Of a DNA stretch of 64,000 bases, positions 6,157-25,889 are shown in pieces. The position numbers and the translations under genes are program-made. The stretch is from an uncultured Solirubrobacterales bacterium. GTDB taxonomy: Bacteria > Actinomycetota > Thermoleophilia > Solirubrobacterales > Solirubrobacteraceae. The DNA is taken from NCBI GenBank assembly GCA_963770885.1, contig CAVYRI010000002.1, forward strand, positions 29,265 to 93,264, read 5' to 3'. Position 1 is the stretch's first letter. Every line of letters begins with the position of its first letter. Under the pieces are notes generated by a model. The model saw nothing but the letters and a program-made list of their open reading frames with translations, searched no databases and was not told where the DNA came from.

Positions 6157-6234
6157 CTCCGTCTCCCTACTCGTGGTTTGCGAGTGCTGCCGGCCGCGCG
6201 CGAAGTCTAGCGGCCATGCGGGCGGGGATTTACG

Positions 6235-6266
6235 TTGACGCGGCTGACCTGCATCTGATATATCAG
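6235..6266 (+). promoter_or_regulatory. sigma70-type promoter overlapped by perfect palindrome CTGATATATCAG (candidate GntR operator)
   Basis: TTGACG 6235-6240, AT-rich -10 region 6258-6264, palindrome 6255-6266, ATG at 6273. Confidence 0.7.
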
Positions 6267-6272
6267 GCACCC

Positions 6273-8801: not shown

Positions 8802-9553
8802 ACATCCTCGTCTGCGTCAAGCGCGTCCCGCTGACCGGCGGCAAGATCACGCTGACCGACGATGCGCAGGCGATCCAGACGCGCCACCTCGGGTTCACGA
8901 TCAGCCCGCACGAGGAATGCGGCGCCGAGGAGGCAGTGCGGCTGGTCGAGCAGCACGGAGGCTCGTCGACGGTCCTCACGCTCGGCCCCGCGGAGGCCGA
9001 GGAGCAGCTGCGCGACATGATGGCGATCGGGATCGACCGTGGCATTCACCTGATCAGCGACGGTGGCGAGTGGGACCCGCAGGCGACTGCGGGCGCGATC
9101 GTCGCGGCGATCAAGTCCGACAGCGAGAGCTACGACCTGATCCTGTTCGGCAACGAGTCGGCCGACGCGGGCAACTACCAGGTCGCGATCCGGGTCGCCC
9201 AAGCGCTCGGACTGCCGTGCGTCAACGGCGTCAAGGGGATCGCGGTGGACGGTCAGCAGCTGCGCTGCGAGCAGGAGGTCGCGGGCGGCCGGGACGTCTA
9301 TCTGATCCCGATGCCGGCCGTCGTGAGCGTCAAGGAAGGGCTCAACCTGCCGCGCTACCCGTCGGTACCGGGCCGGCTGCGCGCCAAGCGCAAGCCGCTT
9401 GACGTCTCGACGCCGCAGCGCCCCGAGAGCCGGCTGGAGATGGTGCGCCTCGTGCTGCCGCAGACCGCCAGCAAGGAGGCCGAGGTGCTCGGCACGGGCC
9501 CAGAGGCAGCGCCGGCGGTGGTCAGAGTGCTGCAGGAGATCGGGGTCGTGTGA
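8798..9553 (+). CDS. etfB: electron transfer flavoprotein subunit beta
   Basis: MNILVCVKRVP, MAIGIDRG, LILFGNESAD, NLPRYPS; ATGA overlap with upstream gene. Confidence 0.92.
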   Translation: MNILVCVKRVPLTGGKITLTDDAQAIQTRHLGFTISPHEECGAEEAVRLVEQHGGSSTVLTLGPAEAEEQLRDMMAIGIDRGIHLISDGGEWDPQATAGAIVAAIKSDSESYDLILFGNESADAGNYQVAIRVAQALGLPCVNGVKGIAVDGQQLRCEQEVAGGRDVYLIPMPAVVSVKEGLNLPRYPSVPGRLRAKRKPLDVSTPQRPESRLEMVRLVLPQTASKEAEVLGTGPEAAPAVVRVLQEIGVV

Positions 9554-10425
9554 TGGCGCTCGTGTTCGTCGAGAGCTCCGATGACGAGCTCTCCCAGCAG
9601 GCGGTCGCGCTGGCCCGAACGCTCGGTGACGGGGTCGACGCCGTCTCGATCGACTCAGCCGCTCCGTACGCGCCCGCCGCTTGGGCGCAGACGCTCGTCG
9701 AGCTGATCGAGCAGCGGTCGCCGACCGCCGTCGTCGGACCCGGAAGCGACCGTGGCAATGAGATCCTCGCCCACGTAGCCGCCAAGCTCGACCAGCCGAT
9801 GGCGGCCAACTGCATCTCGGTCACCACCGGCGACCCGGCGTCGGTGACCCGGGTGCGCTGGGGCGGCAGCCTGCTCGAGGAGGCGCGCCTGGACGGATCG
9901 CCACTGCTTCTGACCAGCGCGCCCCACGCTGTCGCGGCCGAGCCGATCGGCCAGCTGGAGACCATCGCCGTCGCGGGATCGGCGTCCGAGCTCGACAACG
10001 CAGCGCGGGTCGTCGAGCACCTGACCGCTGAGACCTCGGGCGTGTCATTGGCCGACGCCGACGTGGTCGTCTCGGGCGGCCGCGGGGTCGGGTCGGCGGA
10101 GGGCTTCTCGGTGATCGAGGAACTGGCGGCGCTGCTCGGCGGCGCGGTCGGCTGCTCACGCGCGGTCACCAGCGCCGGCTGGCGACCCCACACCGATCAG
10201 GTCGGGCAGACGGGCACCAAGATCTCGCCCGAGATCTACATCGCATGTGGGATCAGCGGCGCGACCCAGCACATGGCCGGCTGCAAGGGCGCCAAACGCC
10301 TGCTGGCGATCAACCCCGACGGCGAGGCGTCGATCTTCGCCAGCGCCGACTACGCCGTGATCGGGGATCTGCACGAGGTGGTGCCGGCGATCTCCGCCGA
10401 GATCAGGAAGGCGAGAGACTCATAG
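9553..10425 (+). CDS. etfA: electron transfer flavoprotein subunit alpha
   Basis: VVVSGGRGVG, GCSRAV, QVGQTG, YIACGISGATQHMAG, AINPD FAD-binding motifs. Confidence 0.93.
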   Translation: MALVFVESSDDELSQQAVALARTLGDGVDAVSIDSAAPYAPAAWAQTLVELIEQRSPTAVVGPGSDRGNEILAHVAAKLDQPMAANCISVTTGDPASVTRVRWGGSLLEEARLDGSPLLLTSAPHAVAAEPIGQLETIAVAGSASELDNAARVVEHLTAETSGVSLADADVVVSGGRGVGSAEGFSVIEELAALLGGAVGCSRAVTSAGWRPHTDQVGQTGTKISPEIYIACGISGATQHMAGCKGAKRLLAINPDGEASIFASADYAVIGDLHEVVPAISAEIRKARDS

Positions 10426-10430: not shown

Positions 10431-12425
10431 GTGATCGCCGCGATCGTGCTCGCCGCGTTGATCGTGGTGAGCGCGACGTTGTTCGCGATTCGTGTCGGCT
10501 TCCTACTCGGACTGGTCCGGGCGGCCGCGCCGGTGAATCGCTCCGGCGATCTCGAGCGGCGGGTCAGCCACGAGGCGACGATCGTCCTCGGACAGCGCAA
10601 GCTGCTCCAGCGACTCGGCCCCGGCCTGATCCACGCGTTCATCTTCTGGGGCTTCCTGGTGCTGGTTCCGACGATCCTGATCGCGCTGATCGGAGTCGTA
10701 GACAAGCACTCGACGCTCCCGTGGCTCGGCCATCAGGGCTGGTTCGCGCTGCTGGCCGACGTGTTCGCGACGCTTGTGCTGGTCGGCTGCGCGGGGGCGG
10801 TCTGGATCCGCAAGGTCCAGCGCCCCGGGCGCTTTGAGGGCAGCCATCTGGGCGAGGCCGACCTGATCCTCGCCCTGATCGCGACGATCGCGACGACGCT
10901 GCTGCTGTGGCAGGCGTGCCGGATCGCGCTCGGACTGAACGAGTGGCCGGCCGGTTGGGCCCCGGTGTCGGACCTGCTCTCGAAGCTGTTCGCCGACAAC
11001 GGATTGACACGCGTGCTCGAGCGGGTGTTCGTGTGGCTGCACGTGTGCACGATCCTGTTCTTCCTCGCCTACCTGCCGCGCTCCAAGCACCTGCACATCT
11101 TCAGCGCCGCGTTCAACGTCTGGTTCGGCCGCACGGGTCCAGGCGGCCGGCTGGAGACGTTGCGCTTCGACGATCCCGATGTGCCCGAGGAGGAGATCCG
11201 GTTCGGCGCCGGGACGGCCGCCGATCTGACCTGGAAGCAGGTTCTGGACACGTTCTCGTGCACCGAGTGCGGCCGCTGCCAGGACGCGTGCCCGGCGTTC
11301 GCAACCGGCAAGCTGCTGTCACCGAAGCTGGTGATCATGGGGCTGCGCGACCAGCTGTTCGCCGACGGCGGCACGATCGTGGCGGCCGCCGGGCACGAGG
11401 GGGAGGCGCCCGAGCTCGCGAGCTTGGTCGGCGATGCCGTACCTGAGGAGTCTGTCTGGGACTGCGTCACCTGCGGGGCGTGTGTGCAGGCCTGCCCGGT
11501 GTCGATCGAGCACGTCGACCACATCGTCGATCTGCGCCGCCACCTGGTGATGGTCGAGTCGAGCTTTCCCGCGGAGGCCGAGCCGATGCTGCGCGACGTC
11601 GAGCGGGCCGGCAACCCATGGGGCAAGGCACAGTCCGAGCGGGCCGATTGGGCCGCCGACCTGGGAGTCCGGGTTCTGGAGCCGGGCGACCCGGCGCCCG
11701 AGTACCTGTACTGGGTCGGATGCGCGACCTCATTTGATGAGCGCGCGCGCAGAACCGGCGAGGCGACCGCGAAGCTGCTGCGCAAGGCGGGCGTCGACTT
11801 CGCGATCCTCGGTCCGCGGGAGGCCTGCACCGGTGACCCGGCCCGGAGGATCGGCAACGAGTATGTCTTTCAGGCGTACGCCGAGCAGAACGTCCAGACG
11901 CTCAACGAAGCGGGGGTGACGAAGATCATCACCGGCTGTCCGCACTGCTTCAACACGCTCGGTAACGAATACCCAGACTTCGGCGGCCACTACGAGGTGA
12001 TCCATCATTCAGAGCTGCTGGCGCGGCTGGTGGCCGACGGGCGCCTGGCGCCCAAGCGCGACCAGGGGCTGAGCATCACCTACCACGACTCCTGCTACCT
12101 GGCGCGCCACAATGACGTGCTCGCTCCGCCGCGGGATCTCGTGGCCGCGGTCGGCGAGCCAGTGGAGATGGAGCGCAGCGGCAAGTCGACGTTCTGCTGT
12201 GGAGCGGGCGGCGCTCACATGTGGATGGAGGAGCGCGCCAAGCCGATCAACGAGAACCGGGTCCGCGAGGCGGCCGGGACGGGTGCGCAGACGCTCGCGG
12301 TTGCGTGCCCGTTCTGCACCGTGATGCTCGATGACGGGGTCCAGAGCGCAGGCGAGGAGCTGCGTGTGGTCGACGTCGCGACGCTGCTCGACGAGGCGAC
12401 GTCAGGGGACGTGGACGGCGGCTAG
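10431..12425 (+). CDS. membrane-bound Fe-S oxidoreductase, FadF/EtfD (ETF:menaquinone oxidoreductase) type
   Basis: N-terminal TM helices with conserved His (HAFIFWGF, HVC, SKHLHI), two CxxCxxCxxxCP motifs (CTECGRCQDACP, CVTCGACVQACP), two CCG domains (GCPHC, CCGAGG); start uncertain (GTG 10431). Confidence 0.85.
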   Translation: MIAAIVLAALIVVSATLFAIRVGFLLGLVRAAAPVNRSGDLERRVSHEATIVLGQRKLLQRLGPGLIHAFIFWGFLVLVPTILIALIGVVDKHSTLPWLGHQGWFALLADVFATLVLVGCAGAVWIRKVQRPGRFEGSHLGEADLILALIATIATTLLLWQACRIALGLNEWPAGWAPVSDLLSKLFADNGLTRVLERVFVWLHVCTILFFLAYLPRSKHLHIFSAAFNVWFGRTGPGGRLETLRFDDPDVPEEEIRFGAGTAADLTWKQVLDTFSCTECGRCQDACPAFATGKLLSPKLVIMGLRDQLFADGGTIVAAAGHEGEAPELASLVGDAVPEESVWDCVTCGACVQACPVSIEHVDHIVDLRRHLVMVESSFPAEAEPMLRDVERAGNPWGKAQSERADWAADLGVRVLEPGDPAPEYLYWVGCATSFDERARRTGEATAKLLRKAGVDFAILGPREACTGDPARRIGNEYVFQAYAEQNVQTLNEAGVTKIITGCPHCFNTLGNEYPDFGGHYEVIHHSELLARLVADGRLAPKRDQGLSITYHDSCYLARHNDVLAPPRDLVAAVGEPVEMERSGKSTFCCGAGGAHMWMEERAKPINENRVREAAGTGAQTLAVACPFCTVMLDDGVQSAGEELRVVDVATLLDEATSGDVDGG

Positions 12426-12989
12426 CAACGCCGCGTAGGACCGAACCAGCGCTGCTCGCTCGTCGTCGACCAGCGGGCTCTCCAGGTCACAGCCCTCCTT
12501 GACCCAGCGATCGGAGAGCCGCATCGCCAGCGCCCGCTGCTCGGCCGCCAGCCGGACGGTTGGCTCGGGCACCCCGTAGGCGTAGGCGTAAAGCTTGGCC
12601 AGCGCGGCGATCAGCGCCTGCTCGTCGAGATCGGAGCCGTGGCGCTGGTGCTCGCGGTGGATCCGCCACCAGTCGACCTCGAGCTCGGCCGCCACCTTGG
12701 GGTCATATCCCTCACCGTGCTCGCGTTTGACCAGCGCGTAGAAGCGCTCCATCGCACCCCGCGCGCCGTCGGGGTCGTTGTCGGTAGGCGGCGCCCAGAG
12801 CTGATTTGCACGCAGCACGAGCCACGCCCCCTGAAAGGTCGCCGGCCAGGGAAGCCCGAAGGCCTGGCGGGTCACGAGCACGGCGGCGCGCAGGAACTTC
12901 AGCCACTCGCGGCGGTAGTAGGAGACCCATGTGACGGTCTCGAGCCGGCCCACCCGGTTTGGGTCAAACGATCGGTGCGGCGCGCTCAC
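12402..12989 (-). CDS. conserved hypothetical protein, last gene of the corrinoid operon
   Basis: 195 aa, GTG start overlapping upstream stop, helical soluble sequence with normal high-GC codon use. Confidence 0.7.
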   Translation of the reverse strand: MSAPHRSFDPNRVGRLETVTWVSYYRREWLKFLRAAVLVTRQAFGLPWPATFQGAWLVLRANQLWAPPTDNDPDGARGAMERFYALVKREHGEGYDPKVAAELEVDWWRIHREHQRHGSDLDEQALIAALAKLYAYAYGVPEPTVRLAAEQRALAMRLSDRWVKEGCDLESPLVDDERAALVRSYAALLAAVHVP

Positions 12990-13547
12990 GGGGTGAGCAG
13001 CTCCTCGAGCGCACGCTCGAGGCCCGCGGTGCCGACCTGGCGCACCTCGAGCGGGAGCCCGAGCCGCTCGGCGGCCGAGACCGCGCAGGCCCGCGTGGCC
13101 GCTGTCGGGCGCTGGGCGAGCCAGACGACGCGCGTGTAGTTGCGAAAGTACTCGTCGCGCAGCTCGGGGTAACGGTCGAGTCCCAGCTCGCGGACCACGG
13201 TGTGCTCGAACGTTCGGGCGAGGAAGTCGGTCAGAAAGTACGTCCCCGGCTCCTGGGCCAGCGCCTCGGCGACCTCATCGCGCGCGAACACGTCGTAGCA
13301 GTGATCGCCGGCCAGCCGGGGCAGCCCGAGCTCGTCGAGCGCGCCGTGGGTTCCGCAGTCGGCGTACGCGAGCGCGACCGCGTCGTGGCGCGCGACGCAG
13401 CTCTGCGACCGCGGGCGCGATCCGCTCGGGGTGGTTGTGCAACATCGCGTCGACCGGCAGTACCTCGACGTCCCAGCCGCGCCGCCGGGCGATCGCGCGG
13501 ACGTCAAACGCCAGCGCCCCGCATCCGATGACTGCGGCCGAGGTCAC
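12986..13547 (-). pseudogene. DUF1638 domain protein, +1 frameshift near 13397
   Basis: Frame 1 VIGCGALA...MLHNHPERI; frame 2 AYADCGTHGALD...HCYDVFA...YFLTDFL...YFRNYTRVVWL, the DUF1638 pattern. Confidence 0.8.
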
Positions 13548-15437
13548 CCGGGAAACGCGAGCTGGTCGATGAACAGATCGTTGAAGTCCGCCCGCCCCGA
13601 CAGCTCGACGTACTCGACCTCGCGCAGGATCGACTGGGCCTCGGCGCGCTCGCGCAGTGAGAGCGCTGCGATCTTGGCGCCCTCGCCCGCGACGTTTCCG
13701 GCCGAGATGATCCGCGGCAGCGCCAGCTTTGGCACCAGCCCGATCCGGATCGCGCTCAGCGGCGTCAGGTAGGCGCCGAAGCTTCCCGCCAGCAGGACCT
13801 GCGTGATCTCGGAGGCGTCGACGCCCAGGTCGGACAGGAGGATGTTCCAGCCGGTCGCGATCGACGCCTTGGCGAACTGAAGCTCGCGCACATCGCGCTG
13901 GGAGAGGAACACCGAGTTGGCCGGGTCATCGTCGCGCCAGTGCAGCACGAACACGCGCTCCTCGCCGATCTTGGTCAGCCGTGAAGCGAGACCGGGCAAC
14001 TTCTCGGCCGCGTCCTCGTCGGCCATGAACCGGCCCGAGTGGTCGAGCAGCCCGGCGTGGGCGAGCTCGGCGACCGCGTCGACGAGGCCCGAGCCGCACA
14101 TACCGACCGGCTCGACGTCACCGATCACGTCGAGCTTGAGCGCCTCCTGCTCGATCTGGACGCCCTCGATCGCGCCCTCCGCGGCTCGCATCCCGCACCG
14201 GATCTGGGCCGCCTCAAACGCGGGCCCGGCCGGCGCCGCGGTCGCCAGCACCCGATCGACTGACCCGAGGGCGATCTCGCTGTTGGTGCCGACGTCGATG
14301 AACAGGCGCAGCCGACGGTCGCGGGTCAGGCCCGTGGCGAGCATCCCGGCGACGATGTCACCGCCGACGTAGGCGCCCAGTGACGGGAACACGAACGCGG
14401 GCGCGCGTGGATGGATCTCGACGCCGAACTCGCTCGCGCGGACCGGCGGAAACTCGTGTGTCGCAACCACGAACGGCGCCATCGACAGCGGCTCGGGGTC
14501 GATGCCGAGCGCGAGCTGCATCATCGTCACGTTGCCGCAGACGGTGATCTCATAGACCTCCGCGCGGCTGCACCTCGCCCTCGACGAGCACCTCCTGGCA
14601 GAGCGTGCTGACCGTCTCGTGGGCTCGATCGCGCAGCGCTCCGAGTGCCAGCTCATCCATCATCGTCGAAGAGATGCGGGTGATCACGTCGGCGCCGTAG
14701 GGCTGCTGGCGGTTGAGCATCGAGCGCACGGCGACCGGCTGCCCGGTCTCGAGGTCGAGCAGCGTTGCGACGACGGTCGTCGTGCCGAGGTCAAACGCGA
14801 TCGCAAACCGGCGTGTGCTCGTGTCACCGGGCTCGAGGTCGATCAGCTCCTCGTCGCAGACGACCGCGGTGACGTCGAAATGGGCCTTGCGCAGGGTTCC
14901 GCCAAGCGTGCGCAGCAACTCGACCGACGCGTGGGGCTCGAGGTCGTCGAGCGCGTCGAGCACGCGCTGCAGATCGGGCCGCTGATCCTCGAGTGACGGC
15001 TCTTCGAGCACCAGGTGGCGCTTCTGCACGCTCGGACGCAGGATCACATGTCGCCCGACGCCTACGAGCGCCGCCTTGGGCCTGGTCTGAAGCGGCGGCA
15101 CCTCGACCACGAGGTCGGCCTGTGCGCTCGCGCGGCAGGCGAGACGCCAGCCGTCGCGCAGCTCGTCGGTCGTGAATGCACGCGGGTCGACGGTCCCGAC
15201 CGGAACGTCTCCCGACACGATCCGAACCTTGCACTTCTTGCAGGTGCCGTGGCCGCCGCAGGTCGAGTCGATCGCGATCCCATTCCAGCTCGCGGCGTCG
15301 AAGATCGGCGTGCCGCTCGGCACCCGGACCTCGTTGCCGTCAGGCAGGAACCGCAGCCGGACCCGGGCGGCTCCGTCTTGCTCGCCCGCCGGCAGCTCGC
15401 GCTCGCGGGCGAGCCGCTTGGGTGCCGAGGCACTCAC
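13544..15437 (-). pseudogene. ASKHA-domain reductive activator of corrinoid proteins (RACo, DUF4445) with N-terminal 2Fe-2S ferredoxin, +1 frameshift near 14561
   Basis: CGGHGTCKKC...RLAC 2Fe-2S; DLGTTT, NRQQPYGADVITR, GNVTM, GAYVGGDIVAG, DVGTNSE, AGPAFE, CGSGLVD, LAGSFG; frames join at VQPR/EVYEIT. Confidence 0.88.
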
Positions 15438-16303
15438 GCGGTAGCTGCCTCCTTGGCGGCCGCCTCGCGCGCCCGGTGGGCGGCGATCCAGCTCGTGCCC
15501 CAGGGGTCGTGGCCGAGCAGCAGGTCTGCCGCTCGCACCGACTGCACGCACACCTCGGCGGTCGACATGATCGCGCTCGTCAGACCGGCGGCCATCGCCA
15601 TCGGCAAAAAGCCGGCGTTGAGCACATGGCGCTGGGGGAGGCCGAAGGACACGTTCGACGCGCCGAGGCACATGTTGACCCCGAGCTCGTCACGGATCAG
15701 CGAGATCGTCGCGAGCGTGGTCGTGACCGCCTCGGTGTCGGCGCCGACCGTCATCGCGAGCGGGTCGATGATCACGTCCTCGGTCGCGATCCCGTGGTCG
15801 TTGGCGGCGCCGACGATCTTGCGCGCGCACTCGAGGCGCTTGTGGGGGGTCTCCGGGATCCCGGTCTCGTCGTTGGCCAGCCCGATCACGGCCGCGTCGT
15901 GCCGGGCGACCAGCGGCAGGATCTCGTCCAGGCGCTCGTCCTCGGCGGTCACCGAGTTGACCAGCGCACGGCCCTCGTAGACCGACAGACCGGCCTCGAG
16001 CGCCTCGATCACCGAGGAGTCGATGCAGATCGGCACGTCGACCGCTTCCTGGACGGTCTTGAGCATCGACTTCAGCAGCTCGGGCTCGTCGACGAGCGGG
16101 ATTCCGGCGTTGACGTCGAGCATGTTGGCGCCGGCCTGAAACTGGTTGACGGCGTCGAGCGTCACCGTCGAGAGGTCCCCGCCGCGAAGCTCCTCGGCGA
16201 ACTTCTTGCGACCGGTCGGGTTGATCCGCTCGCCGATCACGCAGAAGGGCTGTTCGGCCCCAATCGTGACGCTACTGGAGCGCGACCGAAGCACTGTGTC
16301 CAT
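15434..16303 (-). CDS. methyltetrahydrofolate:corrinoid methyltransferase (MeTr, pterin-binding/DHPS fold)
   Basis: IGERINPTGRK, LDVNAG, IDSS, LVNSV, IIDPL, GASNVSFGLP; ATG at 16303. Confidence 0.88.
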   Translation of the reverse strand: MDTVLRSRSSSVTIGAEQPFCVIGERINPTGRKKFAEELRGGDLSTVTLDAVNQFQAGANMLDVNAGIPLVDEPELLKSMLKTVQEAVDVPICIDSSVIEALEAGLSVYEGRALVNSVTAEDERLDEILPLVARHDAAVIGLANDETGIPETPHKRLECARKIVGAANDHGIATEDVIIDPLAMTVGADTEAVTTTLATISLIRDELGVNMCLGASNVSFGLPQRHVLNAGFLPMAMAAGLTSAIMSTAEVCVQSVRAADLLLGHDPWGTSWIAAHRAREAAAKEAATA

Positions 16304-17213
16304 TGGTCTCTCTTTCGAGTCGTGGTCGGATCCCCAGCCGCGTGCAGAGCTTCGCGATACCGGCGTCCTTGCGGAAGGAGATGAAGTGAAGTCCGGCGAC
16401 GCCCGGCTGGGCGAGCGCGTGTGAGGCGAGCTCGTAGGCGATCTCGAAGCACTCGTGCTCGGGGTCGGAAGCCTGCTCGACGCGCGCCACCGTCTCCGGC
16501 GGCACATCGATGCCCGGCACCTTGGAGGCGACGAAACGCATCCCGCCGACGGTGCGCAGGATGCAGATCGACGGGATCAGCGCGATCCGCTCGGTCAGCC
16601 CGGTTTCGTGTGCGACATGCATGAACGACTCGAGCTGCTCGCTCCGGTAGCAGAGCTGGAGCTGCAAAAAGCGCGCTCCCGCAAGCGCCTTCTTCGCTGC
16701 CCGCCGCACGCGGTAGTCCAGCGGCGGCGCGCTCGGGTTCTCGACTGCGCCGACGAAGAAGTGGGGCGGAGGCGAGATGCTGCGGCCCGAGAGGTACCGC
16801 CCCGATGCCAGCGAGCGCGCGATCGCGATCAGCTGGACGCCGTCGACGTCGAACACGCGGCGGGCCTCGGGCTCATCACCGGCGGTGACATCGTCTCCGG
16901 TCAGGCAGCAGACGTTCTCGATCCCGTGCATCGAGGCGCCCATCAGGTCGGCCTCGAGCGCGATCCGGTTGCGGTCGCGGCAGATCAGCTGCATCACCGG
17001 CTCGACGCCGGCCTCGCGGAGCGCGACCGAGACCGCGAGCGGCGAGCAGTGGGCGTGCGCGGAGGGATTGTCGGTCGCGTTGAAGGCGTCGACGAATGCC
17101 TGCATCGGCTCGAGCTGGCGGCGGATCTCGTCCTTGCCACCGCCGTCGATCACGGGCATCTCGGCCGTCACCACGAACTCCCTCGCGTCGAGTTTGCGCT
17201 CAAGCGCTGACAT
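16272..17213 (-). CDS. metF: methylenetetrahydrofolate reductase (MetF, acetogen/MetVF type)
   Basis: VVTAE, NATDN, QLICRDRNRIAL, LTGD, KKALAGARFLQLQ; 313 aa. Confidence 0.88.
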   Translation of the reverse strand: MSALERKLDAREFVVTAEMPVIDGGGKDEIRRQLEPMQAFVDAFNATDNPSAHAHCSPLAVSVALREAGVEPVMQLICRDRNRIALEADLMGASMHGIENVCCLTGDDVTAGDEPEARRVFDVDGVQLIAIARSLASGRYLSGRSISPPPHFFVGAVENPSAPPLDYRVRRAAKKALAGARFLQLQLCYRSEQLESFMHVAHETGLTERIALIPSICILRTVGGMRFVASKVPGIDVPPETVARVEQASDPEHECFEIAYELASHALAQPGVAGLHFISFRKDAGIAKLCTRLGIRPRLERETNGHSASVALQ

Positions 17214-17589
17214 CGACCGGCGCCTCCGGCGTCCGTCGCCACCCGGCCGGCACCTCGCGGTCGCGGCCGCTGAACAGGTTCAGCCACGCCGAGCTGCCCT
17301 GTAGCCGGTTGTCCACCGGGGGGCGGAGGTCGTCGATATGGCCGCGCCACAGTGGCAGCCGCTCAGAGCGCTCGACCGCCTTCAGCCACACGCAGCGCAT
17401 CTCCGGCTTGACCTCGCAGTTGCCGTTGGCGCGCACGCCGCCGCAGGGCCCGTTGCGCAGCATCTTGGGGCACGTCATCGGGCACGTCAGCCCGGTCGAG
17501 TGCAGCACGCACTGGCCGCACATCTGACAATCCCAGACGGGCTTTTTGACCGCGTGCTCGAGGCCGGCGACCACGCCCCTGGCGTTCAC
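17200..17589 (-). CDS. metV: MTHFR small subunit / zinc-Fe-S protein (MetV-like, MTHFR_C domain)
   Basis: DCQMCGQCVL...CPMTCPK.LRNGPCGG...CEV....CVW Cys pattern directly upstream of metF. Confidence 0.85.
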   Translation of the reverse strand: MNARGVVAGLEHAVKKPVWDCQMCGQCVLHSTGLTCPMTCPKMLRNGPCGGVRANGNCEVKPEMRCVWLKAVERSERLPLWRGHIDDLRPPVDNRLQGSSAWLNLFSGRDREVPAGWRRTPEAPVDVSA

Positions 17590-18251
17590 GCCGGTACCTT
17601 CTCCCGACGGAGCTCGATCAGTTCCTTGGCCTTCTTTACCGCCGATGACGCGTCCGCCGAGTAGCCGTCGGCGCCGACGGCGTCGGCGTACTCCTGGGTT
17701 ACCGGCGCGCCGCCGACCATCACGATCACGTCCTCGCGTATGCCCGCCTTCTCGAGCGCGTTGATGTTGGCCTTGAACATCGGCATCGTCGTCGTCAGGA
17801 AGGCCGAGAAACCGACAATGTCGGGGTTGTGCTCGCCGATCTGCTCGATGAACTTCTCCGGCGGCACGTTGACGCCGAGGTCGATGACGGTGAAGCCCGC
17901 TCCCTCGAGCATGATGTTGCAGAGGTTCTTGCCGATGTCGTGGACGTCTCCCTTGACGGTGCCCATCAGGAAGGTGCCGACCGTCCGGGTCCCGGTCTCG
18001 GCCAGCAGCGGCCGCAGGATGTCGAGCGCGCCCTGCATCGCGCGGGCCGCGATCAGCATCTCGGGGACGAAGTAGTCACCGCGCTCAAACCGCGCGCCGA
18101 CCTCCTCCAGAGACGGGATCAGGGCGTCGTAGAGCATCCGCTCGGGCTCGAGGTCTGTCTCGAGGCCCTGCTGAACGCCGTCGGTGACCGCGGGGGCATT
18201 GCCGACGAGCGTCTCTTCGTAGAGCAGTTGCAGGATCTCCTCGTGAGTCAT
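17586..18251 (-). CDS. corrinoid (B12-binding) methyl-carrier protein, MtbC/MttC-like
   Basis: GTVKGDVHDIGKNL (DxHxxG), FVPEMLIAARAM cap domain, SAFLTTT, VGGAP; 221 aa. Confidence 0.93.
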   Translation of the reverse strand: MTHEEILQLLYEETLVGNAPAVTDGVQQGLETDLEPERMLYDALIPSLEEVGARFERGDYFVPEMLIAARAMQGALDILRPLLAETGTRTVGTFLMGTVKGDVHDIGKNLCNIMLEGAGFTVIDLGVNVPPEKFIEQIGEHNPDIVGFSAFLTTTMPMFKANINALEKAGIREDVIVMVGGAPVTQEYADAVGADGYSADASSAVKKAKELIELRREKVPA

Positions 18252-19069
18252 GCGGCGTGTTCTCCTTGCTGGTCGTTGCCCAGCCGGCGGCTGAGTGCCT
18301 CCGCCTCGGCGATCAGGATCGGTTTGAGCTCGGCGATCCGAGCCGGGGTCATGCGGGTGGTCGGTCCGGAGATGCTCAGCGCGGCGACAACCTCTCCGCC
18401 CGCGCCGCGCACCGGAGCCGCGATCGCGGCGAGCCCGACCTCGAGCTCATCAACCGCGGTGGCGAACTGCTCGCGCCGGACCTCATCGAGCTGCGCGCGC
18501 AGCTGGGCTGGGTCGACGATCGTCATCGGCGTCAGCCGCTCGAGCTCGCGGGCCGGCATCGTCGCGCGGCCGAAGGCCATGAACACCTTGCCGACCGCCG
18601 TGCAGTTGTATCCGACCGACCGCCCGAGCCACTGGCCGGCGCCGAGGAAGTGCTGGCTCTCCACCTGCGCGACATGCTCGACGCCGTCGCGCGCCGGTAC
18701 GGCGAGGTTGATCGTCTCGCCACTTGTCTGGGCCAGCGAGTCCAACGACTGGCGGGCCAGCTCGACGACGCTGCGCTCGAGCATGCTGCGCTCGGCGACC
18801 CGCAGGATCGCGGGCCCCGGACGGAGCCGGCCGCGCTCGCCGTCCTGCTCGACCAGGCCGCGGCGCTCGAGCGCGCTGACCAGCCGTGAGGCGGTGCTCT
18901 TCGGGATCCCGCTTGCGGACGCCAGCTCCGACAGCGCCACCGGCTGGGCCGATTCCAGGACCCGCACGAGCAGCTCGGCGCCGCGATCGATCGCGGTGGT
19001 GCCGGGGGACGGCGTGGCCGAAGAGAGTTCCTCGGCGCCGTCTCGAGAAAGTTGGAACTGTTGTTCCAC
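18248..19069 (-). CDS. IclR family transcriptional regulator
   Basis: AIDRGAELL...LSELASASGIPKSTASRLVSAL HTH; GETINLAV, TAVGKV, DELEVGLAAIAAPV; start uncertain (GTG 19069 just after TAATAT). Confidence 0.88.
   Translation of the reverse strand: MEQQFQLSRDGAEELSSATPSPGTTAIDRGAELLVRVLESAQPVALSELASASGIPKSTASRLVSALERRGLVEQDGERGRLRPGPAILRVAERSMLERSVVELARQSLDSLAQTSGETINLAVPARDGVEHVAQVESQHFLGAGQWLGRSVGYNCTAVGKVFMAFGRATMPARELERLTPMTIVDPAQLRAQLDEVRREQFATAVDELEVGLAAIAAPVRGAGGEVVAALSISGPTTRMTPARIAELKPILIAEAEALSRRLGNDQQGEHAA
19053..19068. promoter_or_regulatory. palindrome TGGAAC-N4-GTTCCA, candidate IclR operator between divergent iclR and mttB
   Basis: perfect 6-bp arms read directly from the sequence at the divergent junction. 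Confidence 0.5.
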
Positions 19070-19123
19070 GCCGGTTATATTAGGGCCCGACACCGCTGCG
19101 TCAAGCCACAATCGGAGGAAGCC

Positions 19124-20566
19124 TTGTTCAAGAACGCGATGCCTCGCTACGAGGTCCTCAGCGAGGACGCGATGGAAGTGCTCGACCGCGGCTGGCGGCG
19201 GATCGTGTCCGAGCTCGGGGTCGAGTTCCTGCTGCCCGAGGCCGTCGAACTGCTCAGAGACGCAGGTCAGATCGTCGAAGGCGAGAACCGGGTCCGGTTT
19301 GACCCCGAGTTCATTCTCGAGCAGGTGGCCAAGGCGCCGAGCGAGTTCGAGCTCCAGGCGCGCAACCCCGACAACACGGCCCACATCGGCGGCGACAACA
19401 TGGTCTTCGCGCCGGTCTACGGCTGCCCGTTCATCCGCGAGGGCAACGTCCGCCGAGATGCGAAGATGGCCGACTTCGAGAACCTGGTCCGGCTCTCGCA
19501 GGCCTTCCCCGAGCTCGACTCACCCGGCGGCACGATCTGCGAGCCCGAGGACCGCCCGCTGGACTCGCGCCACCTCGACATGGTCTACGCGCTGCAGACG
19601 CTGTCGGACAAGCCCTACATGGGCTCGGTGACCTCGGGCCCGAACGCCGCCGACACGATCCGGATGGGTGAGATCCTGTTCGGCGGCCGCGAGGCGATCG
19701 AGCGGGCCCCGGCCTCGATCTCGCTGATCAACGTCAACTCCCCGCTGCGTTACGACGACCGCATGCTCGCGGCGATGTTCGAGTACGTGAAGGCCAACCA
19801 GGCGGTCGTGATCACCCCGTTTTTGTTGATGGGCGCGATGTCGCCGGTCTCGCTGCCCGCGACGCTCGTACAGCAGATGGCCGAGGCGCTGGCGGGGATC
19901 GCGCTCTCGCAGCTGATCCGTCCGGGAGCGCCGGTCGTGTTCGGCTCGTTTCTGTCAAACACCGACATGCAGTCGGGCTCGCCGTCGTTCGGGACCCCGG
20001 AGTCGGGGATCGGCGTGCTCTGCACGGGGCAGATCGCGCGGAAATTCGGCCTCCCTTGGCGGGGCGGCGGCGCGCTGAACGCGTCCCAGACCGTCGACGC
20101 GCAGGCTGCGTATGAGTCGCTGATGACGCTTCTGCCAACGTTCCTGGCCGGCGCCAACTTCGTCATGCACTCGGCGGGCTGGCTCGAGGGAGGGCTCGTC
20201 TCCTGCTATGAGAAGTTCATCGTCGATGTCGAGCTGCTGCGCGAGCTGCGCCACGAGTTCACCCCGCTCGAGATCGACGAGGAGAGCCTCGCCTTCGACG
20301 CCCACGAGGAGGTCGGCGCCGGTGGACACTTCCTCGGCGCGGCCCATACGCTCGCCCGCTTCCGGGAGTGCTTCTACCGTCCGTTGCTGTCCTCGACCGA
20401 GAACTTCGACCGCTGGACCAAGCGCGGGGCCAGGGACACGACCGCGCGGGCGGCGGAGATCTGGCGCGCGACGCTCGAGGCCTACGAGCAGCCGCCGCTC
20501 GATGATGCGATCCGGGCCGAGCTCGAGGAGTTCGTCGTCCGGCGGCGCGCCGAGCTGGGGGACTGA
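19124..20566 (+). CDS. trimethylamine methyltransferase (MttB) superfamily protein, non-pyrrolysine (MtgB-like quaternary-amine:corrinoid methyltransferase)
   Basis: TTG after GGAGGA; MPRYEVLSED, PVYGCPF, EPEDRPLDSRHLD, NVNSPLRYD, GAMSPV, SGSPSFGTPE, DAQAAYES, HSAGWLEGGL, GGHFLG; no in-frame amber. Confidence 0.92.
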   Translation: MFKNAMPRYEVLSEDAMEVLDRGWRRIVSELGVEFLLPEAVELLRDAGQIVEGENRVRFDPEFILEQVAKAPSEFELQARNPDNTAHIGGDNMVFAPVYGCPFIREGNVRRDAKMADFENLVRLSQAFPELDSPGGTICEPEDRPLDSRHLDMVYALQTLSDKPYMGSVTSGPNAADTIRMGEILFGGREAIERAPASISLINVNSPLRYDDRMLAAMFEYVKANQAVVITPFLLMGAMSPVSLPATLVQQMAEALAGIALSQLIRPGAPVVFGSFLSNTDMQSGSPSFGTPESGIGVLCTGQIARKFGLPWRGGGALNASQTVDAQAAYESLMTLLPTFLAGANFVMHSAGWLEGGLVSCYEKFIVDVELLRELRHEFTPLEIDEESLAFDAHEEVGAGGHFLGAAHTLARFRECFYRPLLSSTENFDRWTKRGARDTTARAAEIWRATLEAYEQPPLDDAIRAELEEFVVRRRAELGD

Positions 20567-20573: not shown

Positions 20574-21281
20574 CTAGGACTCGGGGCCGGCGCTGGCGCC
20601 TCCGGGCTCCGCCGGCGGCGCCGTGGGAGCCGCGGGAGTCGCGCTCTCGGGCTCCTTGGGGGCCATCGCCCGCAGCCAGACGGTCTCGAGCGTACGCAGC
20701 GCGAGCTCGGGGTTGCCCTCGTTGGGGCGCCCGAACTCCCCCAGCAGGTAGCGCTCATTCATCAGGTTGAGCGCGCGGGCAACGGGCCACGGGTCGAGCG
20801 GGTCGATCCGGCCCTCGCTGACCATCGTCCCAAGGCCGAACGCGGTCAGTTCCGTGAACCGGTCGAGGAAGCCGTTGTAGGCCCGCTCGATTCGAACGTC
20901 GGTCGTCGCGCCCTCGGCGAAGGCGCGGATCAGTGGGCCGTTGCGCGTGAAGAAATCGACGATCGCCTTGAGCCCGGTACGCGCGGCGTGCGGGAACCCA
21001 AGCGCGGCGGCCTGCTCGGCCTGGGCGTCCTGAAGCCAGCGCTCGGCGACCCCGTAGAGCTCGTTTCCCATCTCGTCCATCAGCGCCAGGACGAGCTCGG
21101 TGACGTCGTCGAAGTGGCGGTAGAAGGCGTACCTGGTGGAGCCCGATTGGGTCACGAGCGCCTCGACCGACAGCTCACGGTACGGGCGGGAGCGCAGGAA
21201 CTCGTCGGCCGAGGTGAGGATCTCGCCGCGCGTGGCCTCGTCTGGCTGCGCTTGTCGGGTGGTCTGCTCGGCCGGGCTCAC
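20574..21281 (-). CDS. TetR/AcrR family transcriptional regulator
   Basis: TRGEILTSADEFL..RPYRELSVEAL...GSTRYAFYRHF HTH; TATGAT 6 nt before GTG. Confidence 0.85.
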   Translation of the reverse strand: MSPAEQTTRQAQPDEATRGEILTSADEFLRSRPYRELSVEALVTQSGSTRYAFYRHFDDVTELVLALMDEMGNELYGVAERWLQDAQAEQAAALGFPHAARTGLKAIVDFFTRNGPLIRAFAEGATTDVRIERAYNGFLDRFTELTAFGLGTMVSEGRIDPLDPWPVARALNLMNERYLLGEFGRPNEGNPELALRTLETVWLRAMAPKEPESATPAAPTAPPAEPGGASAGPES

Positions 21282-21347
21282 GGGCGCATCATATTCCGCT
21301 CGCGCGTGTTTAAAGGAACCATCGTGGACCGGTATAAGAACACGCCC

Positions 21348-23213
21348 ATGCCCGCCCGAGGAGCTGCCAGTCGCTGCGCGAGGCTGTTTGGCCGACTCCT
21401 GCCGGCAGCGCTCGCGGCTGCCTGCCTCGGCCTTCCGGCCGCCGCTGGCGCCGACGCCGGCCGCCACGCGTCGGCCCACGCCGCGCGGCGTCCCGCCCGC
21501 GCCGCCGCACCGACGATCTCGCCGCTGCCGGGCACCCCGGACGCGTCTCCCCAGACCCAGATCAGCATCCTCGGGGTCGCGCGCAGGCAGATCCTCGCCG
21601 TCGGCGTGACCGGCTCGGCCAGCGGCATCCACGCGGGTCGACTGCGGGCCTACAGCGACGGACGCGGCGCGAGCTTCGTGCTGCGCAACCCGCTGACCCA
21701 GGGCGAGCGGGTCAAGGTGCGGGTCACGCTGCGCGGCCAGCGTGCTGTGCGATCCGATTTCACGGTCGCGCGGCTCGCGCCGACGCCGCCGATCATCGAC
21801 ACGCTCGTCGAGCAGCCCGACAAGCTCGACCACTTCGTCTCCCAACCGTCGCTGCTGGCACCCCGGATCCAGATCCGCCGCCATTCGCGGATCGGCGGCG
21901 GCGACATCTTCCTGACGCCGCTGCCATCTCCGATCGTCCATCCCGAGAGCAACAACGAGCTGTCGATCAAGCCGGTCGGCCCGGGCGGCCCGATGATCAT
22001 CAACGGTCGCGGACGTCTGGTCTGGTTTGACCAGCTCCCGTCGCCGCTGGTGGCTACCAACTTCAGGCCACAGCGCTTCGATGGGCACGAGGTGCTCACC
22101 TGGTGGCAGGGAAAGGTCACCGCGACCGCCTACGGTCTCGGCGAGGGCGTGATCGCCGATACGCGCTACCGGACGATCCGCACGGTGCACGCCGGCAACG
22201 GCTACCAGTCCGATCTGCACGAGTTCGTGCTGACGCCCGGCGGCGACGCGCTGTTCACGGTCGACCAGCCGGTCCTGGTGCACGTGCCCGGCACCCCAGC
22301 CGGGACGCAGACGCGGCTTTTGGATTCGATGATCCAGGAGGTCGACGTCCGCACCGGGCTGGTGATGTGGGAATGGCACTCGCTCGGCCACATCCCGCTC
22401 GCCGACTCCTACGCGACGCCGTCCAACAGCGTCAGCGACGACGCGTTCCATCTCAACTCGATCCAGCAGCTCGCGCACGATCGGCTGCTGGTCTCCGCCC
22501 GTGACACCTCGGCCGTGTACGAGCTCAACCGCCGCACCGGAGCGATCGTCTGGACGCTCGGTGGCAAGGCGAGCAGCTTCCGCCTCGGACGCCGCGCGCG
22601 CTTCTACTTCCAGCACGACGCGCAGCTGATCGGACCCGACCGCGTCAGCCTGTTCGATGACGGTGCCGGACCGCCGATCCGGGAGCGCAACTCGCGTGGG
22701 CTGGTCCTGGCGCTACACCAGCACCGGCACGTCGCGACCGTCGCGCGGCAGTTCAGGCGCCCGGGCGCCACCAGCGCCGAGAGCGAAGGCAACGTCCAGA
22801 GCCTGTCACGCGGGAAGGTGTTCGTCGGCTTCGGCGCGACGCCGTTCTTCTCCGAGTTCTCCGCCACCGGTCGGCTGCTGTTCGACGGCTCGCTGCCGGT
22901 CGACGACGGCAGCTACCGGGCCTACAGATTCCCGTGGCACGCAGGTCCTGCTGCCCCGCCACGGGCGCTGGTGCGGCGCACCTCGAGCTCGCAGGTGACC
23001 GTCTACGCGACCTGGAACGGCGCGACCTCGGTGTGCCGCTGGCAGGTGCTCGCCGGCACGGCGAGCGGGCCGCTGCGACCGGTCGCGACCGCCCCGGACC
23101 GGGGATTCGAGACGCGGATCGCGGTCACCAGCTCGGCCGGCAGCTTCCAGCTGCGCGCACTCGGCGCCAAGGGTCAGGTGCTCGGCCGGTCGGCGCGCCT
23201 GAGCGCCTCCTGA
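21348..23213 (+). CDS. secreted arylsulfotransferase (ASST)-family beta-propeller protein
   Basis: signal peptide; DLHEFVLT, WEWHSLGH, DAFHLNSI, LLVSARDTSAVY, FYFQHDA, LFDDG, EGNVQ, SYRAYRFPW, YATWNGAT motifs. Confidence 0.82.
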   Translation: MPARGAASRCARLFGRLLPAALAAACLGLPAAAGADAGRHASAHAARRPARAAAPTISPLPGTPDASPQTQISILGVARRQILAVGVTGSASGIHAGRLRAYSDGRGASFVLRNPLTQGERVKVRVTLRGQRAVRSDFTVARLAPTPPIIDTLVEQPDKLDHFVSQPSLLAPRIQIRRHSRIGGGDIFLTPLPSPIVHPESNNELSIKPVGPGGPMIINGRGRLVWFDQLPSPLVATNFRPQRFDGHEVLTWWQGKVTATAYGLGEGVIADTRYRTIRTVHAGNGYQSDLHEFVLTPGGDALFTVDQPVLVHVPGTPAGTQTRLLDSMIQEVDVRTGLVMWEWHSLGHIPLADSYATPSNSVSDDAFHLNSIQQLAHDRLLVSARDTSAVYELNRRTGAIVWTLGGKASSFRLGRRARFYFQHDAQLIGPDRVSLFDDGAGPPIRERNSRGLVLALHQHRHVATVARQFRRPGATSAESEGNVQSLSRGKVFVGFGATPFFSEFSATGRLLFDGSLPVDDGSYRAYRFPWHAGPAAPPRALVRRTSSSQVTVYATWNGATSVCRWQVLAGTASGPLRPVATAPDRGFETRIAVTSSAGSFQLRALGAKGQVLGRSARLSAS

Positions 23214-23230: not shown

Positions 23231-24499
23231 TCAGCTGTCCTCGGGTCCGGCGAGCCGCCGGATCTCGTAGCCCGCCGCGGCGAGCGCTGCGATGATCGCC
23301 TCGCTGTGCTCGGCGCCGCGCGTCTCGAGCGCGATGTTGACGCCGGTCTCGCGCACGTGCAGGGGGACGGCCTCGCGGACGTGATCGGCGTGCACGACGT
23401 TGCCGCCGGCCTCGGCGATCCTCGTCAGCAGCGCCGCCAATCCGCCGGGCCGGTCAGAGATCGTCGTGAACAGACGCAGCCGACGGCCGGCGGTCGTCTC
23501 GTGGCGGTGTGCGATCGCCGCCAGCAGCCCGGCGTCAACGTTGCCGCCCGACAGCACGATCACCATCCGGCCGTGGGCGGCCGGCGTGACGTGGCCGCTG
23601 AGCAGCGCGGCGACTCCTGCGGCGCCACCGCCCTCGACGACCAGCTTTGACCGCTCCAGCAGCCACACCATCGCGTCGGCGATCTCGTCCTCGGTCACGA
23701 CCACCATCTCGTCGACCCACCGCTGGACGAGCGGCAGCGTCAGCTCGCCCGGGCGTTTGATCGCGATCCCGTCGGCGATCGTGGGACGTGACTGGAAGGT
23801 GATCGGGGCGCCCTCGGCAAGCGACTCGGGGAACGGCGAGCAGGCGTCGACCTGGACGCCGATCACCCTCGCCGACGGCCGTGCCGCCTTGACCACGCCC
23901 GCGATGCCGGAGATCAACCCGCCGCCGCCGACCGGGACGACGACCGCCTCGAGATCGGCCACGTCCTCGAGCAGCTCGAGCCCGAGCGTCGCCTGTCCGA
24001 GGATCACCTCGGGGTCGTCGAACGGATGGACGAAAGCGGCGCCGGTCTCGGCGGCCCGCTCACGGGCCGCCGCCACACACGCGTCGACCGACTCGCCGCC
24101 GAGGTTGACCGTGCCGCCGAATGCCTGCACGGCGGCGACCTTCGCCACCGGCGCCTCGTCTGGCATGAACACCTCGCACGGGATCCCCTGCTCGCGCGCC
24201 GCGTAGGCGAGCGATTGGCCGTGGTTGCCGGCGCTCCCCGCAACGACGCCGACGGGGTCCTCGAGCCGGGAGATCTTGTGCATCGCTCCCCGGAGCTTGA
24301 ACGAGCCGGTGCGTTGCAGACTCTCGGCCTTGAGAACGATCTGGCCGCCACCGCGTTCCGACAGGCTGCGAGACGTCAGCAGCGGCGTATGGCGCGCGAC
24401 CGTCTGGACGATCCGCCGCGCGGCTTGCGCGTCACCGGCCTCTAGCCGGCGCGCTACGGCGTCCGCGGTGTACCCGTCCGGCGCGGTCATGTAGGGCAT
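23231..24499 (-). CDS. ilvA: threonine/serine ammonia-lyase with C-terminal ACT domain
   Basis: LKAESLQRTGSFKLRGA (PLP Lys), SAGNHGQ, HPFDD, VPVGGGGLISG, SGGNVD, ISDRPGGLA. Confidence 0.92.
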   Translation of the reverse strand: MPYMTAPDGYTADAVARRLEAGDAQAARRIVQTVARHTPLLTSRSLSERGGGQIVLKAESLQRTGSFKLRGAMHKISRLEDPVGVVAGSAGNHGQSLAYAAREQGIPCEVFMPDEAPVAKVAAVQAFGGTVNLGGESVDACVAAARERAAETGAAFVHPFDDPEVILGQATLGLELLEDVADLEAVVVPVGGGGLISGIAGVVKAARPSARVIGVQVDACSPFPESLAEGAPITFQSRPTIADGIAIKRPGELTLPLVQRWVDEMVVVTEDEIADAMVWLLERSKLVVEGGGAAGVAALLSGHVTPAAHGRMVIVLSGGNVDAGLLAAIAHRHETTAGRRLRLFTTISDRPGGLAALLTRIAEAGGNVVHADHVREAVPLHVRETGVNIALETRGAEHSEAIIAALAAAGYEIRRLAGPEDS

Positions 24500-24584
24500 C
24501 CCGAGGCAGCCAGATGCACCGTCCCGACGGGGTCCAGAAACGCTTGGCGCACGATGAACAGAATGTTAGACTCCTAGACGATGA

Positions 24585-24596
24585 CTCATATATCAG
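24585..24596. promoter_or_regulatory. CTCATATATCAG, near-palindromic copy of the CTGATATATCAG operator upstream of gntR
   Basis: 11/12 match to the 6255-6266 palindrome; on the minus strand reads CAACTGATATAT as at 28154-28165. Confidence 0.65.
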
Positions 24597-24672
24597 TTGC
24601 GTGCAGTGGTGGGGATTGCGTGCAGCGTCGCGGAGCCGGTTCGGCGTGCCGTCCGCGGATCGGGGAGGAGTC

Positions 24673-25335: not shown

Positions 25336-25608
25336 GCGCAACTGGCTAGTGTCGTGATGCTTTAGTTGGTGGTCGGCGCAGGCGTTGGCGTTGCGCGCTC
25401 GGATTGTGTCGGCGGTGGCTGGGGTCTGAACAGCACTGCTGTTTTGTTCGAGCGGCGGCTTGATCGGCTGCTTGACGAGCCCTTGGAGACCGACGCTGAC
25501 GGATGCGGCGCACTGGTCGGCGCGGTCGATGGGCTGCGAGGTCGGGTTCAAATCAGTCGGCCGTCGGTGGGTGGGGCTCGTTTGGTTGTCGGAGGGGAGC
25601 GCGATCGG

Positions 25609-25727: not shown

Positions 25728-25889
25728 GCTCGGGGCAGCGGCCTGCACCGATCTGGAAGGCGTTCGGGCTGAAACCTGATCGTCAGCAGACCTAAAAGCT
25801 GTCCAAGCACCCCGCCTGTTGATCGACAAGGTCCGCCGATGTCGTCGGCCTGTAGCTCGATCCGCCACGCCGATCAATGAATTACGGCA

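Follow-up and report, generated by a model that had tools for sequence, protein, structure and literature searches.

The locus analysed here raises the question of which compound is demethylated by an MttB-family methyltransferase whose gene lies, together with genes for a corrinoid protein, folate-linked enzymes and a reductive activase, at positions 12402-20566 of a 64,000-nucleotide stretch (the window) from an uncultured Solirubrobacterales bacterium, and whether such a system can work in its host. Our analysis suggests that the cluster is probably a regulated catabolic unit with which an aerobic soil bacterium strips glycine betaine of its first N-methyl group, in a reaction sequence that depends on cobalamin and folate. 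An earlier note on this DNA had proposed that the first demethylation of glycine betaine is B12-dependent here and feeds an adjacent dimethylglycine dehydrogenase (DMGDH), and this is supported by gene context, namely the adjacency of DMGDH and electron-transfer flavoprotein (ETF) genes and the betaine-gene neighbourhoods of proteobacterial homologues. The parts, identified by Pfam and NCBIfam profile searches of the open reading frames (ORFs) in the window, are the following.

19124-20566, plus strand: mttB (mtgB-like), non-pyrrolysine MttB-superfamily methyltransferase (methyltransferase 1, MT1) of 480 amino acids; PF06253, 625 bits
18248-19069, minus strand: IclR-family regulator, first gene of the minus-strand operon; HTH_IclR and IclR_C domains
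17586-18251, minus strand: corrinoid (cobalamin-binding) protein, MtgC-like; PF02310 (B12-binding) and PF02607 (B12-binding_2)
17200-17589, minus strand: MetV, small Cys-rich subunit of a MetVF-type methylene-tetrahydrofolate (methylene-THF) reductase; PF12225, 89.8 bits
16272-17213, minus strand: MetF, divergent MetVF-type methylene-THF reductase; PF02219, 87 bits
15434 to about 16270, minus strand: methyl-corrinoid:THF methyltransferase (methyltransferase 2, MT2), MtgA/MtgD/MeTr-like and pterin-binding; PF00809, and NF005719 at 326.6 bits against a cut-off of 259
13544 to about 15437, minus strand: RACo-type reductive activase; Fer2 [2Fe-2S], linker, middle and ASKHA ATPase domains
12986 to about 13574, minus strand: DUF1638 protein, accessory to corrinoid reactivation; PF07796, profile positions 26-160 only
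12402-12989, minus strand: hypothetical protein of 195 amino acids, encoded last in the operon; neither Pfam nor NCBIfam gave a match
6216-8801, plus strand: DMGDH/sarcosine-dehydrogenase-type flavoprotein, presumed to be a DMGDH; DAO, FAO_M, GCV_T and GCV_T_C domains
8798-9553, plus strand: EtfB; PF01012 and PF00766 for the EtfB/EtfA pair
9550-10425, plus strand: EtfA; the same two families for the pair
10431-12425, plus strand: EtfD-like membrane Fe-S oxidoreductase, the presumed link from ETF to menaquinone; about five hydrophobic segments, a 4Fe-4S dicluster (Fer4) and two CCG domains

The genes from iclR to the 195-residue ORF follow one another on the minus strand in the order listed, downward from position 19069, and mttB is transcribed divergently from this IclR-led operon, in a window with a G+C content of 65-74%. 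Every gene that the earlier note had named around iclR (MttB-family MT1, corrinoid protein, MeTr, RACo, MetV and MetF) was confirmed by the profile searches, and its statement that mttB has no amber codon also held: the frame is open, with zero internal stops and no in-frame UAG, from a TTG start at 19124 that is preceded by GGAGGA and was set from 480-residue relatives and the sequence. The top NCBIfam models for the corrinoid protein were MtgC_2 and MtbC, neither of which reached its cut-off, and the DxHxxG motif of His-on binding is present as DVHDIG at residue 102. MetV contains eight cysteines, and metV and metF are adjacent with overlapping stop and start codons. RACo has all four domains in the correct order but over two frames (NF040756, 258 and 140 bits against a cut-off of 800), and its [2Fe-2S] cysteines C138, C144, C147 and C179 follow the plant-type pattern Cys-X5-Cys-X2-Cys-X31-Cys. 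All of the parts are present, but the claim of a complete system has to be qualified, as two of the genes are frame-broken in the assembly. The ORF at 12402-12989, for which the hydropathy profile gave zero hydrophobic segments, was kept in only 11 related loci, and its membership of the system is uncertain.

Conservation was counted over 55 related loci with full 10-kb flanks. The seven core genes occurred in the same order in 54 of these loci, and therefore the cluster is not a chance grouping. MetV-MetF were kept in 40 loci, and ETF/EtfD genes were directly adjacent in 35, with a DMGDH gene as well where the flank extends far enough. At the level of the phylum, MttB-family genes were found in 67 of 401 sampled Actinomycetota genomes (within the family of the host, in its own genus only). 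When 20 neighbourhoods of such genes were fetched, most high-scoring copies were found to lie in a co-directional operon with the order corrinoid protein-DUF1638-MeTr-RACo-MttB; seven of these operons adjoin ETF genes, and four of the seven have a DMGDH that is 58-63% identical to that of the window. This repeated association of MttB operons with DMGDH-EtfBA orthologues, in other actinobacterial families and in differing arrangements, provides the strongest evidence for dimethylglycine as the predicted product. A domain scan of the ORFs from 1 to 32 kb detected none of the acetogen-type redox partners of MetVF (HdrABC-MvhD, RnfC2), and ETF/EtfD genes adjoin the metVF-containing operon in their place.

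The substrate-binding residues of MttB were examined by residue-level HMMER alignments to the structures 2qne, 9yce and 4yyc, with numbering calibrated on 9yce. The top PDB matches were 4yyc (452 bits) and 2qne and 9yce, both Desulfitobacterium hafniense MtgB (425 and 420 bits). In D. hafniense MtgB, glycine betaine is contacted by Y97, R312, H348 and F356, of which Y97 and F356 provide cation-pi interactions, R312 a salt bridge to the carboxylate, and H348 a hydrogen bond to it (Picking et al., PMC13080624). Y97 corresponds to Tyr (PVYGCPF), R312 to Arg (LPWRGGG), and H348 to His (FVMHSAG) in the window protein, so that by these alignments it is MtgB-like in the carboxylate site and in one aromatic contact. 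These results also bear on the possibility that MttB demethylates trimethylamine released by the ergothionase- or hercynine-lyase-type enzymes encoded farther along the window. This can hardly be the case: besides the lack of an in-frame UAG, the score with TIGR02369 was 272 bits against a cut-off of 525, the match to the pyrrolysine-containing MttB 7xcl reached only 128 bits, the carboxylate-binding Arg and His are conserved, and trimethylamine is no substrate of D. hafniense MtgB, which is the nearest relative among characterised proteins (PMC13080624). Distant MttB paralogues in other Actinomycetota (our loci L145, L146, L148 and L149) share 25-31% identity, often form tandem pairs adjoining a corrinoid protein gene, and have lost the Arg of the carboxylate site together with the His pattern; these paralogues probably act on non-acidic substrates.

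Several observations weigh against glycine betaine as the substrate or against a working pathway. The fourth contact residue, F356, is replaced by Gly in the window MttB, with a Trp four positions earlier in the loop HSAGWLEGGL. In a maximum-likelihood tree that combined actinobacterial with context-annotated proteobacterial homologues, the genus of the window and one other Thermoleophilia genome formed their own clade (100/100) on a long branch, apart from a well-supported clade with the proteins of Paracoccus, Sinorhizobium and Azoarcus and of the common actinobacterial operon type; the transfer of a substrate assignment to the window MttB is less secure because of this separate, long-branched position. 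The cluster contains no betaine transporter gene, no BCCT gene was found in the genome, and its sole clear OpuAC domain is encoded about 260 kb from the cluster. CobS and CbiB had no match in the genome, which is 92.8% complete. Both reactivation genes, those for RACo and DUF1638, are frame-broken in this assembly. Finally, although MtgC and MtgD were required for growth of Ruegeria pomeroyi DSS-3 on glycine betaine (Mausz et al., PNAS 2025, PMC12478193), only mtgC and mtgD were knocked out in that work, and the MtgB genes were not.

The first two of these points would be explained if the system operates as described but MttB takes another carboxylated quaternary amine, such as proline betaine, carnitine, gamma-butyrobetaine, or a histidine betaine, e.g., hercynine. 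It is also in line with this that MttB-superfamily members with approximately 40-50% identity differ in substrate (PMC13080624, PMC8604678). However, the adjacency of DMGDH and ETF recurs both here and in independent actinobacterial arrangements, and the residues of the binding loop are identical to those of homologues encoded among betA/betB and bmt genes: Gly at the position of F356 and the HxAGWLEGGL loop are common to 4yyc and to all aligned cluster-linked actinobacterial and proteobacterial homologues. Trp352 may take over the role of F356. Another betaine is therefore an unlikely substrate, albeit one to be kept in mind, and it is the gene context, not a place in a characterised clade, that supports the assignment to glycine betaine.

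Histidine betaines had been put forward specifically in the earlier note, and an ergothionase-like lyase gene (57766-59091, minus strand) is present in the window. The distance between this gene and mttB was 28-68 kb in five of the six genomes that carry both on one contig, which could speak for a joint function. The distribution of the two genes does not support this suggestion. Among 41 genomes of the genus, 13 have a lyase orthologue (at least 60% identity) and 28 have MttB; 17 of these 28 lack a lyase orthologue, and two genomes have the lyase but no MttB. The pattern looks like a loose regional linkage of betaine-related catabolic genes and not like functional coupling. Specificity of the Thermoleophilia MttB for a non-glycine carboxylated betaine (for instance hercynine, ergothioneine, or proline betaine) appears rather unlikely. 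If such a substrate were nevertheless the true one, the loosely linked lyase, which lacks the 4-methylideneimidazole-5-one (MIO) group, and urocanase-like genes would form with the cluster one betaine-catabolic island containing an undescribed B12-dependent step.

The remainder of the genome is consistent with demethylation of glycine betaine by a dedicated system. The host assembly is a metagenome-assembled genome (MAG) of 5.77 Mb in 12 contigs, and the closest loci, from species-representative genomes, all belong to MAGs labelled Solirubrobacterales/Solirubrobacteraceae, many of them from one long-read soil series; the host, which had been described as a probable soil actinomycete, is thus a member of the Thermoleophilia and not a classical actinomycete. 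It respires oxygen, as the genome contains four genes for haem-copper oxidase subunit I (COX1). MttB and RACo are each encoded once. A MetH gene is located elsewhere (C5:874646-878045, 825 and 130 bits), and a canonical MetF (301 bits) is encoded at C12:576762, which makes the MetF of the cluster the second methylene-THF reductase of the genome. The preference of the earlier note for the B12-dependent step over a Rieske monooxygenase was upheld in part, as no GbcB-type reductase exceeded the cut-off in the genome, in a model search that covered GbcB and not GbcA. As to betaine-homocysteine methyltransferase, which the note had likewise set aside, such a route may exist, given the stand-alone homocysteine-methyltransferase-like genes elsewhere in the genome. 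Because the genome has four COX1 genes, no GbcB over the cut-off, its own MetH, and a canonical MetF, the cluster can be regarded as a dedicated catabolic set.

The same inventory bears on a further alternative, in which the corrinoid protein and the methyl-THF methyltransferase act chiefly as a split methionine synthase of the kind found in Phaeobacter and Ruegeria, with betaine demethylation as a secondary activity. The stand-alone homocysteine-methyltransferase-like genes could be taken in its favour. It is nevertheless very unlikely, as the genome has the full-length MetH gene as well as a short MetE-family gene, the cluster has a catabolic regulator of the IclR type and is tied to DMGDH-ETF genes, and it was not found in 13 of the 41 sampled genomes of the genus, several of which are incomplete. 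The MetE-family gene (1099-2073, minus strand; 324 amino acids; NF005085, 384 bits, over the cut-off, with a weak Pfam Meth_synt_2 match) lies 10 kb from the corrinoid cluster, and its product is possibly a B12-independent or a corrinoid-protein-dependent methionine synthase.

The genome encodes three full-length DMGDH-type proteins in total, the two others being 34% and 30% identical to the window copy, and a second EtfB-EtfA-EtfD set. The 34%-identical paralogue and the gene for the canonical MetF are 5 kb apart (C12:569014-577607), and the second Etf set adjoins a GCV_T-domain gene (C1:628822-634598). Both are candidates for the later demethylation steps, i.e., those of sarcosine. With regard to the cofactor, the absence of CobS and CbiB matches suggests, but does not prove, that cobalamin must be scavenged, and the host probably does so.

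Whether demethylation of glycine betaine by this cluster is still functional depends on how the two frame breaks are read. RACo is split once, within the Raco_middle domain, and not more than once, as the "frameshifts" of the earlier note implied: compared with four relatives, there is one extra base in GCCGCGCGGAGG, at about 14553-14562 (near 14560), and the gene is in frame across this point in 67 of 68 relatives. The second break, which had escaped the earlier note, is a one-base insertion in the DUF1638 gene near 13395; a single-base gap is seen against the closest relative (L012), and the N-termini of the relatives align to 13574-13401 in one frame and the remainder to 13390-12989 in another. 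The window and L012 share 90.6% DNA identity over about 22 kb, and each carries two frame-breaking indels, in different genes: L012 has a one-base insertion in iclR (at about 9300-9700) and another in the gene for an arylsulfotransferase-like protein. Several other relatives from the same long-read series have scattered breaks in the genes for the corrinoid protein, MetF, EtfA/B, the Fe-S protein, and RACo, which were not seen in the short-read assemblies checked among the relatives. One surplus base (…GAGCTG-C-AAGGCGGCC…) likewise splits the metH gene of the host over two frames, and other genes matched in genome-wide searches had internal stops as well. Overall, frame-breaking indels seem to occur about once in every 10 kb of this assembly.

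The insertions might also be real, in which case the cluster would be decaying, the corrinoid would not be reactivated, and the pathway would be dead or nearly so. It fits with this that the two insertions hit precisely the two reactivation genes, at most 1.2 kb apart, that RACo is present in a single copy, and that late cobalamin-synthesis genes were not found. In contrast, the remaining genes of the cluster are intact, with 90% DNA identity to a relative in which RACo and DUF1638 are whole, frame breaks occur in this MAG and its sister long-read MAGs at a rate of about one per 10 kb, metH being one of the genes hit, and neither RACo nor DUF1638 contains a further disabling mutation, with a single high-scoring segment pair on each side of the break. 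We consider decay quite unlikely. Because 67 of 68 relatives are in frame, L012 mirrors the error pattern, metH and other genes are broken too, and no further defect is present, both one-base insertions are most likely consensus errors of the long-read assembly. Programmed +1 frameshifting was also considered, as the RACo site reads GGAGGU-CUA-UGA and both breaks would need a +1 shift. It was rejected, since RACo occupies a single frame in 67 of 68 relatives; it is further contradicted by the lack of such a context at the DUF1638 site and by the similar breaks in unrelated genes.

The unit is predicted to be controlled from the 54-bp spacer between mttB and iclR, where a promoter scan gave the following element.

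19052-19104, both strands: overlapping divergent promoters with a common AT-rich -10 region

The plus-strand promoter is TTGGAA-18-TATATT and the minus-strand promoter TTGACG-16-TAATAT; these are two sites in the spacer compared with 0.0 expected in shuffles. A perfect palindrome, TGGAAC-TGTT-GTTCCA (19053-19068), overlaps the mttB -35 element and promoter spacer as well as the start of iclR, and occurs once in the window against an expectation of 0.05. This 6+6 palindrome was found by alignment of related spacers and a pattern search, whereas an inverted-repeat scan, within the lengths it accepts, had no match. Across 45 related spacers, conservation was at least 80% for the palindrome, for the -10 region, and for the minus-strand -35 element (GTCAAG), and the palindrome is probably the operator of IclR. 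The only in-frame start of iclR is a GTG at 19069, and because it lies 8 nt past the -10 element, the iclR transcript may be leaderless. The IclR repressor would then bind TGGAAC-N4-GTTCCA over the face-to-face promoters and thereby jointly control mttB and its own operon. An Rfam scan of the whole window found no B12 riboswitch and no other known RNA.

The genes on the far side of mttB are also partly conserved. In 42 related loci, a threonine/serine ammonia-lyase gene is located 3' of mttB, and the block kept after mttB in the relatives consists of this gene and those for a GntR regulator, an aldehyde dehydrogenase, and an APC-family permease. In the window, the region 23231-29869 encodes an ammonia-lyase, GntR and IclR regulators, an aldehyde dehydrogenase (similar to betaine-aldehyde and succinate-semialdehyde dehydrogenases, with no model score over its cut-off), and an APC permease resembling amino-acid/choline transporters. 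The ammonia-lyase gene is as follows.

23231-24499, minus strand: threonine/serine ammonia-lyase; TIGR01127, 411 bits, over the cut-off

No choline dehydrogenase was seen in this block, which may be a module for the uptake and oxidation of a choline-like precursor. Between mttB and the ammonia-lyase gene, at 20574-23213, the window has a TetR-family gene (minus strand) and an arylsulfotransferase-like gene (plus strand); of about 90 related loci, only about 4-10 have these genes, which look like a recent insertion.

On the basis of homology and context, from which all of its steps are drawn, the pathway could proceed as follows. The MttB-family enzyme would bind glycine betaine and transfer one methyl group to the Co(I) of the corrinoid protein, yielding dimethylglycine, and the pterin-binding methyltransferase would pass the methyl group from the corrinoid to THF. 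MetF-MetV would oxidise methyl-THF to methylene-THF, and corrinoid that has fallen to Co(II) would be reduced back by the RACo-type activase and DUF1638 at the expense of ATP. The DMGDH-type flavoprotein would demethylate dimethylglycine, with electrons flowing through EtfAB and the EtfD-like Fe-S protein to the quinone pool. A possible exit would be the conversion of glycine and methylene-THF to serine and then, via the conserved serine/threonine ammonia-lyase, to pyruvate.

Aerobic marine and root-nodule bacteria were already known to carry this gene set. The Solirubrobacterales bacterium is therefore a new host for a known pathway, and the known mechanism is unchanged by our findings. What this window adds are two probable assembly frameshifts, a separate MttB clade, an apparent lack of late cobalamin-synthesis genes, and a well-defined operator/promoter pair. 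If the assignment is correct, soil Thermoleophilia join the hosts of the cobalamin-dependent glycine betaine route, for which proof had come from anaerobes alone until aerobic Proteobacteria were added in 2025, and labels such as "trimethylamine methyltransferase" on these genes in soil surveys would be a misreading. Since the genome shows no CobS/CbiB, betaine turnover in soil may hinge on scavenged B12. The operator/promoter pair and the MetVF-ETF/EtfD neighbourhood could serve as handles on methyl-THF oxidation in aerobes.

Comparison with known systems places the cassette among aerobic relatives, and the term "acetogen-style" used in the earlier note is misleading, since aerobic Alphaproteobacteria have an identical cassette of seven genes, MetV-MetF among them. 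The best MttB homologue in the plasmid collection (48% identity) is encoded on plasmid IV of Paracoccus aminovorans, where mttB is divergent from genes for a B12-binding protein, DUF1638, MetV, MetF, a methyl-THF methyltransferase, and an ASKHA protein, with carnitine dehydrogenase/BKACE genes as neighbours and the carnitine dehydrogenase gene 10 kb away. All seven window proteins have a match in this cassette, with 31-59% identity (59% for MetV and 50% for the methyl-THF methyltransferase). In Sinorhizobium meliloti, at the locus of the 4yyc-type protein, the same gene set is found near bmt and a betaine ABC transporter, and the Azoarcus homologue is flanked by folD, ETF:quinone oxidoreductase (ETF-QO), a choline-binding protein gene, betA, and betB. 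The Paracoccus and S. meliloti cassettes share with the window the seven gene families, the divergent mttB, the same Tyr, Arg and His residues, and the HxAGWLEGGL loop. They differ in that DUF1638 directly follows the corrinoid protein, whereas it is last in the window, in the lack of an iclR gene, in the position of MttB in the other well-supported clade, and in having carnitine, bmt, and betaine-transport genes as neighbours instead of DMGDH-ETF.

In R. pomeroyi, genetic and proteomic data prove the aerobic route: besides the requirement for MtgC and MtgD, growth on betaine raises the levels of DUF1638, MetF2, a RamA-like protein, and two pfam06253 proteins (PMC12478193). This MtgBCD system resembles the window in its pfam06253 methyltransferase, B12-binding protein, pterin-binding methyltransferase, extra MetF, ASKHA-type activase, and DUF1638, and in an oxygen-respiring host in which it feeds THF-linked one-carbon oxidation and the demethylation of dimethylglycine and sarcosine, as is predicted from the genes for the window. 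The R. pomeroyi genes are scattered, whereas those of the window are in one locus under an IclR regulator; in addition, the window has MetV explicitly beside MetF, an EtfD-like electron exit rather than ETF-QO, and a host from the Thermoleophilia (Actinomycetota). The additional role of MtgC and MtgD as methionine synthase, where a classical MetH is missing, is a trait of the roseobacter version and is not needed for betaine demethylation; the window host keeps a classical MetH, so its corrinoid protein need not assume that function.

Among the anaerobes, the MtgB-MtgC-MtgA system of D. hafniense (2qne, 9yce; PMC13080624) has in common with the window a non-pyrrolysine TIM barrel, the residues Y97, R312 and H348, and the passage of the methyl group from betaine via corrinoid to THF, which is predicted for the window. 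It differs in its anaerobic host, in the presence of F356 (Gly with the earlier Trp in the window), and in the lack of a DMGDH/ETF context. The Eubacterium limosum enzymes MtpB, MtcB, MtyB and MthB, with MtqC/MtqA, belong to the same superfamily and share the three-component logic and the conserved Arg for acidic quaternary amines; in contrast to the system proposed here, they act on proline betaine, carnitine, gamma-butyrobetaine, and phosphocholine, and they feed the Wood-Ljungdahl pathway of an acetogen. By its gene content, the cassette appears to be the known aerobic glycine betaine system, here compact and under the predicted control of an IclR regulator.

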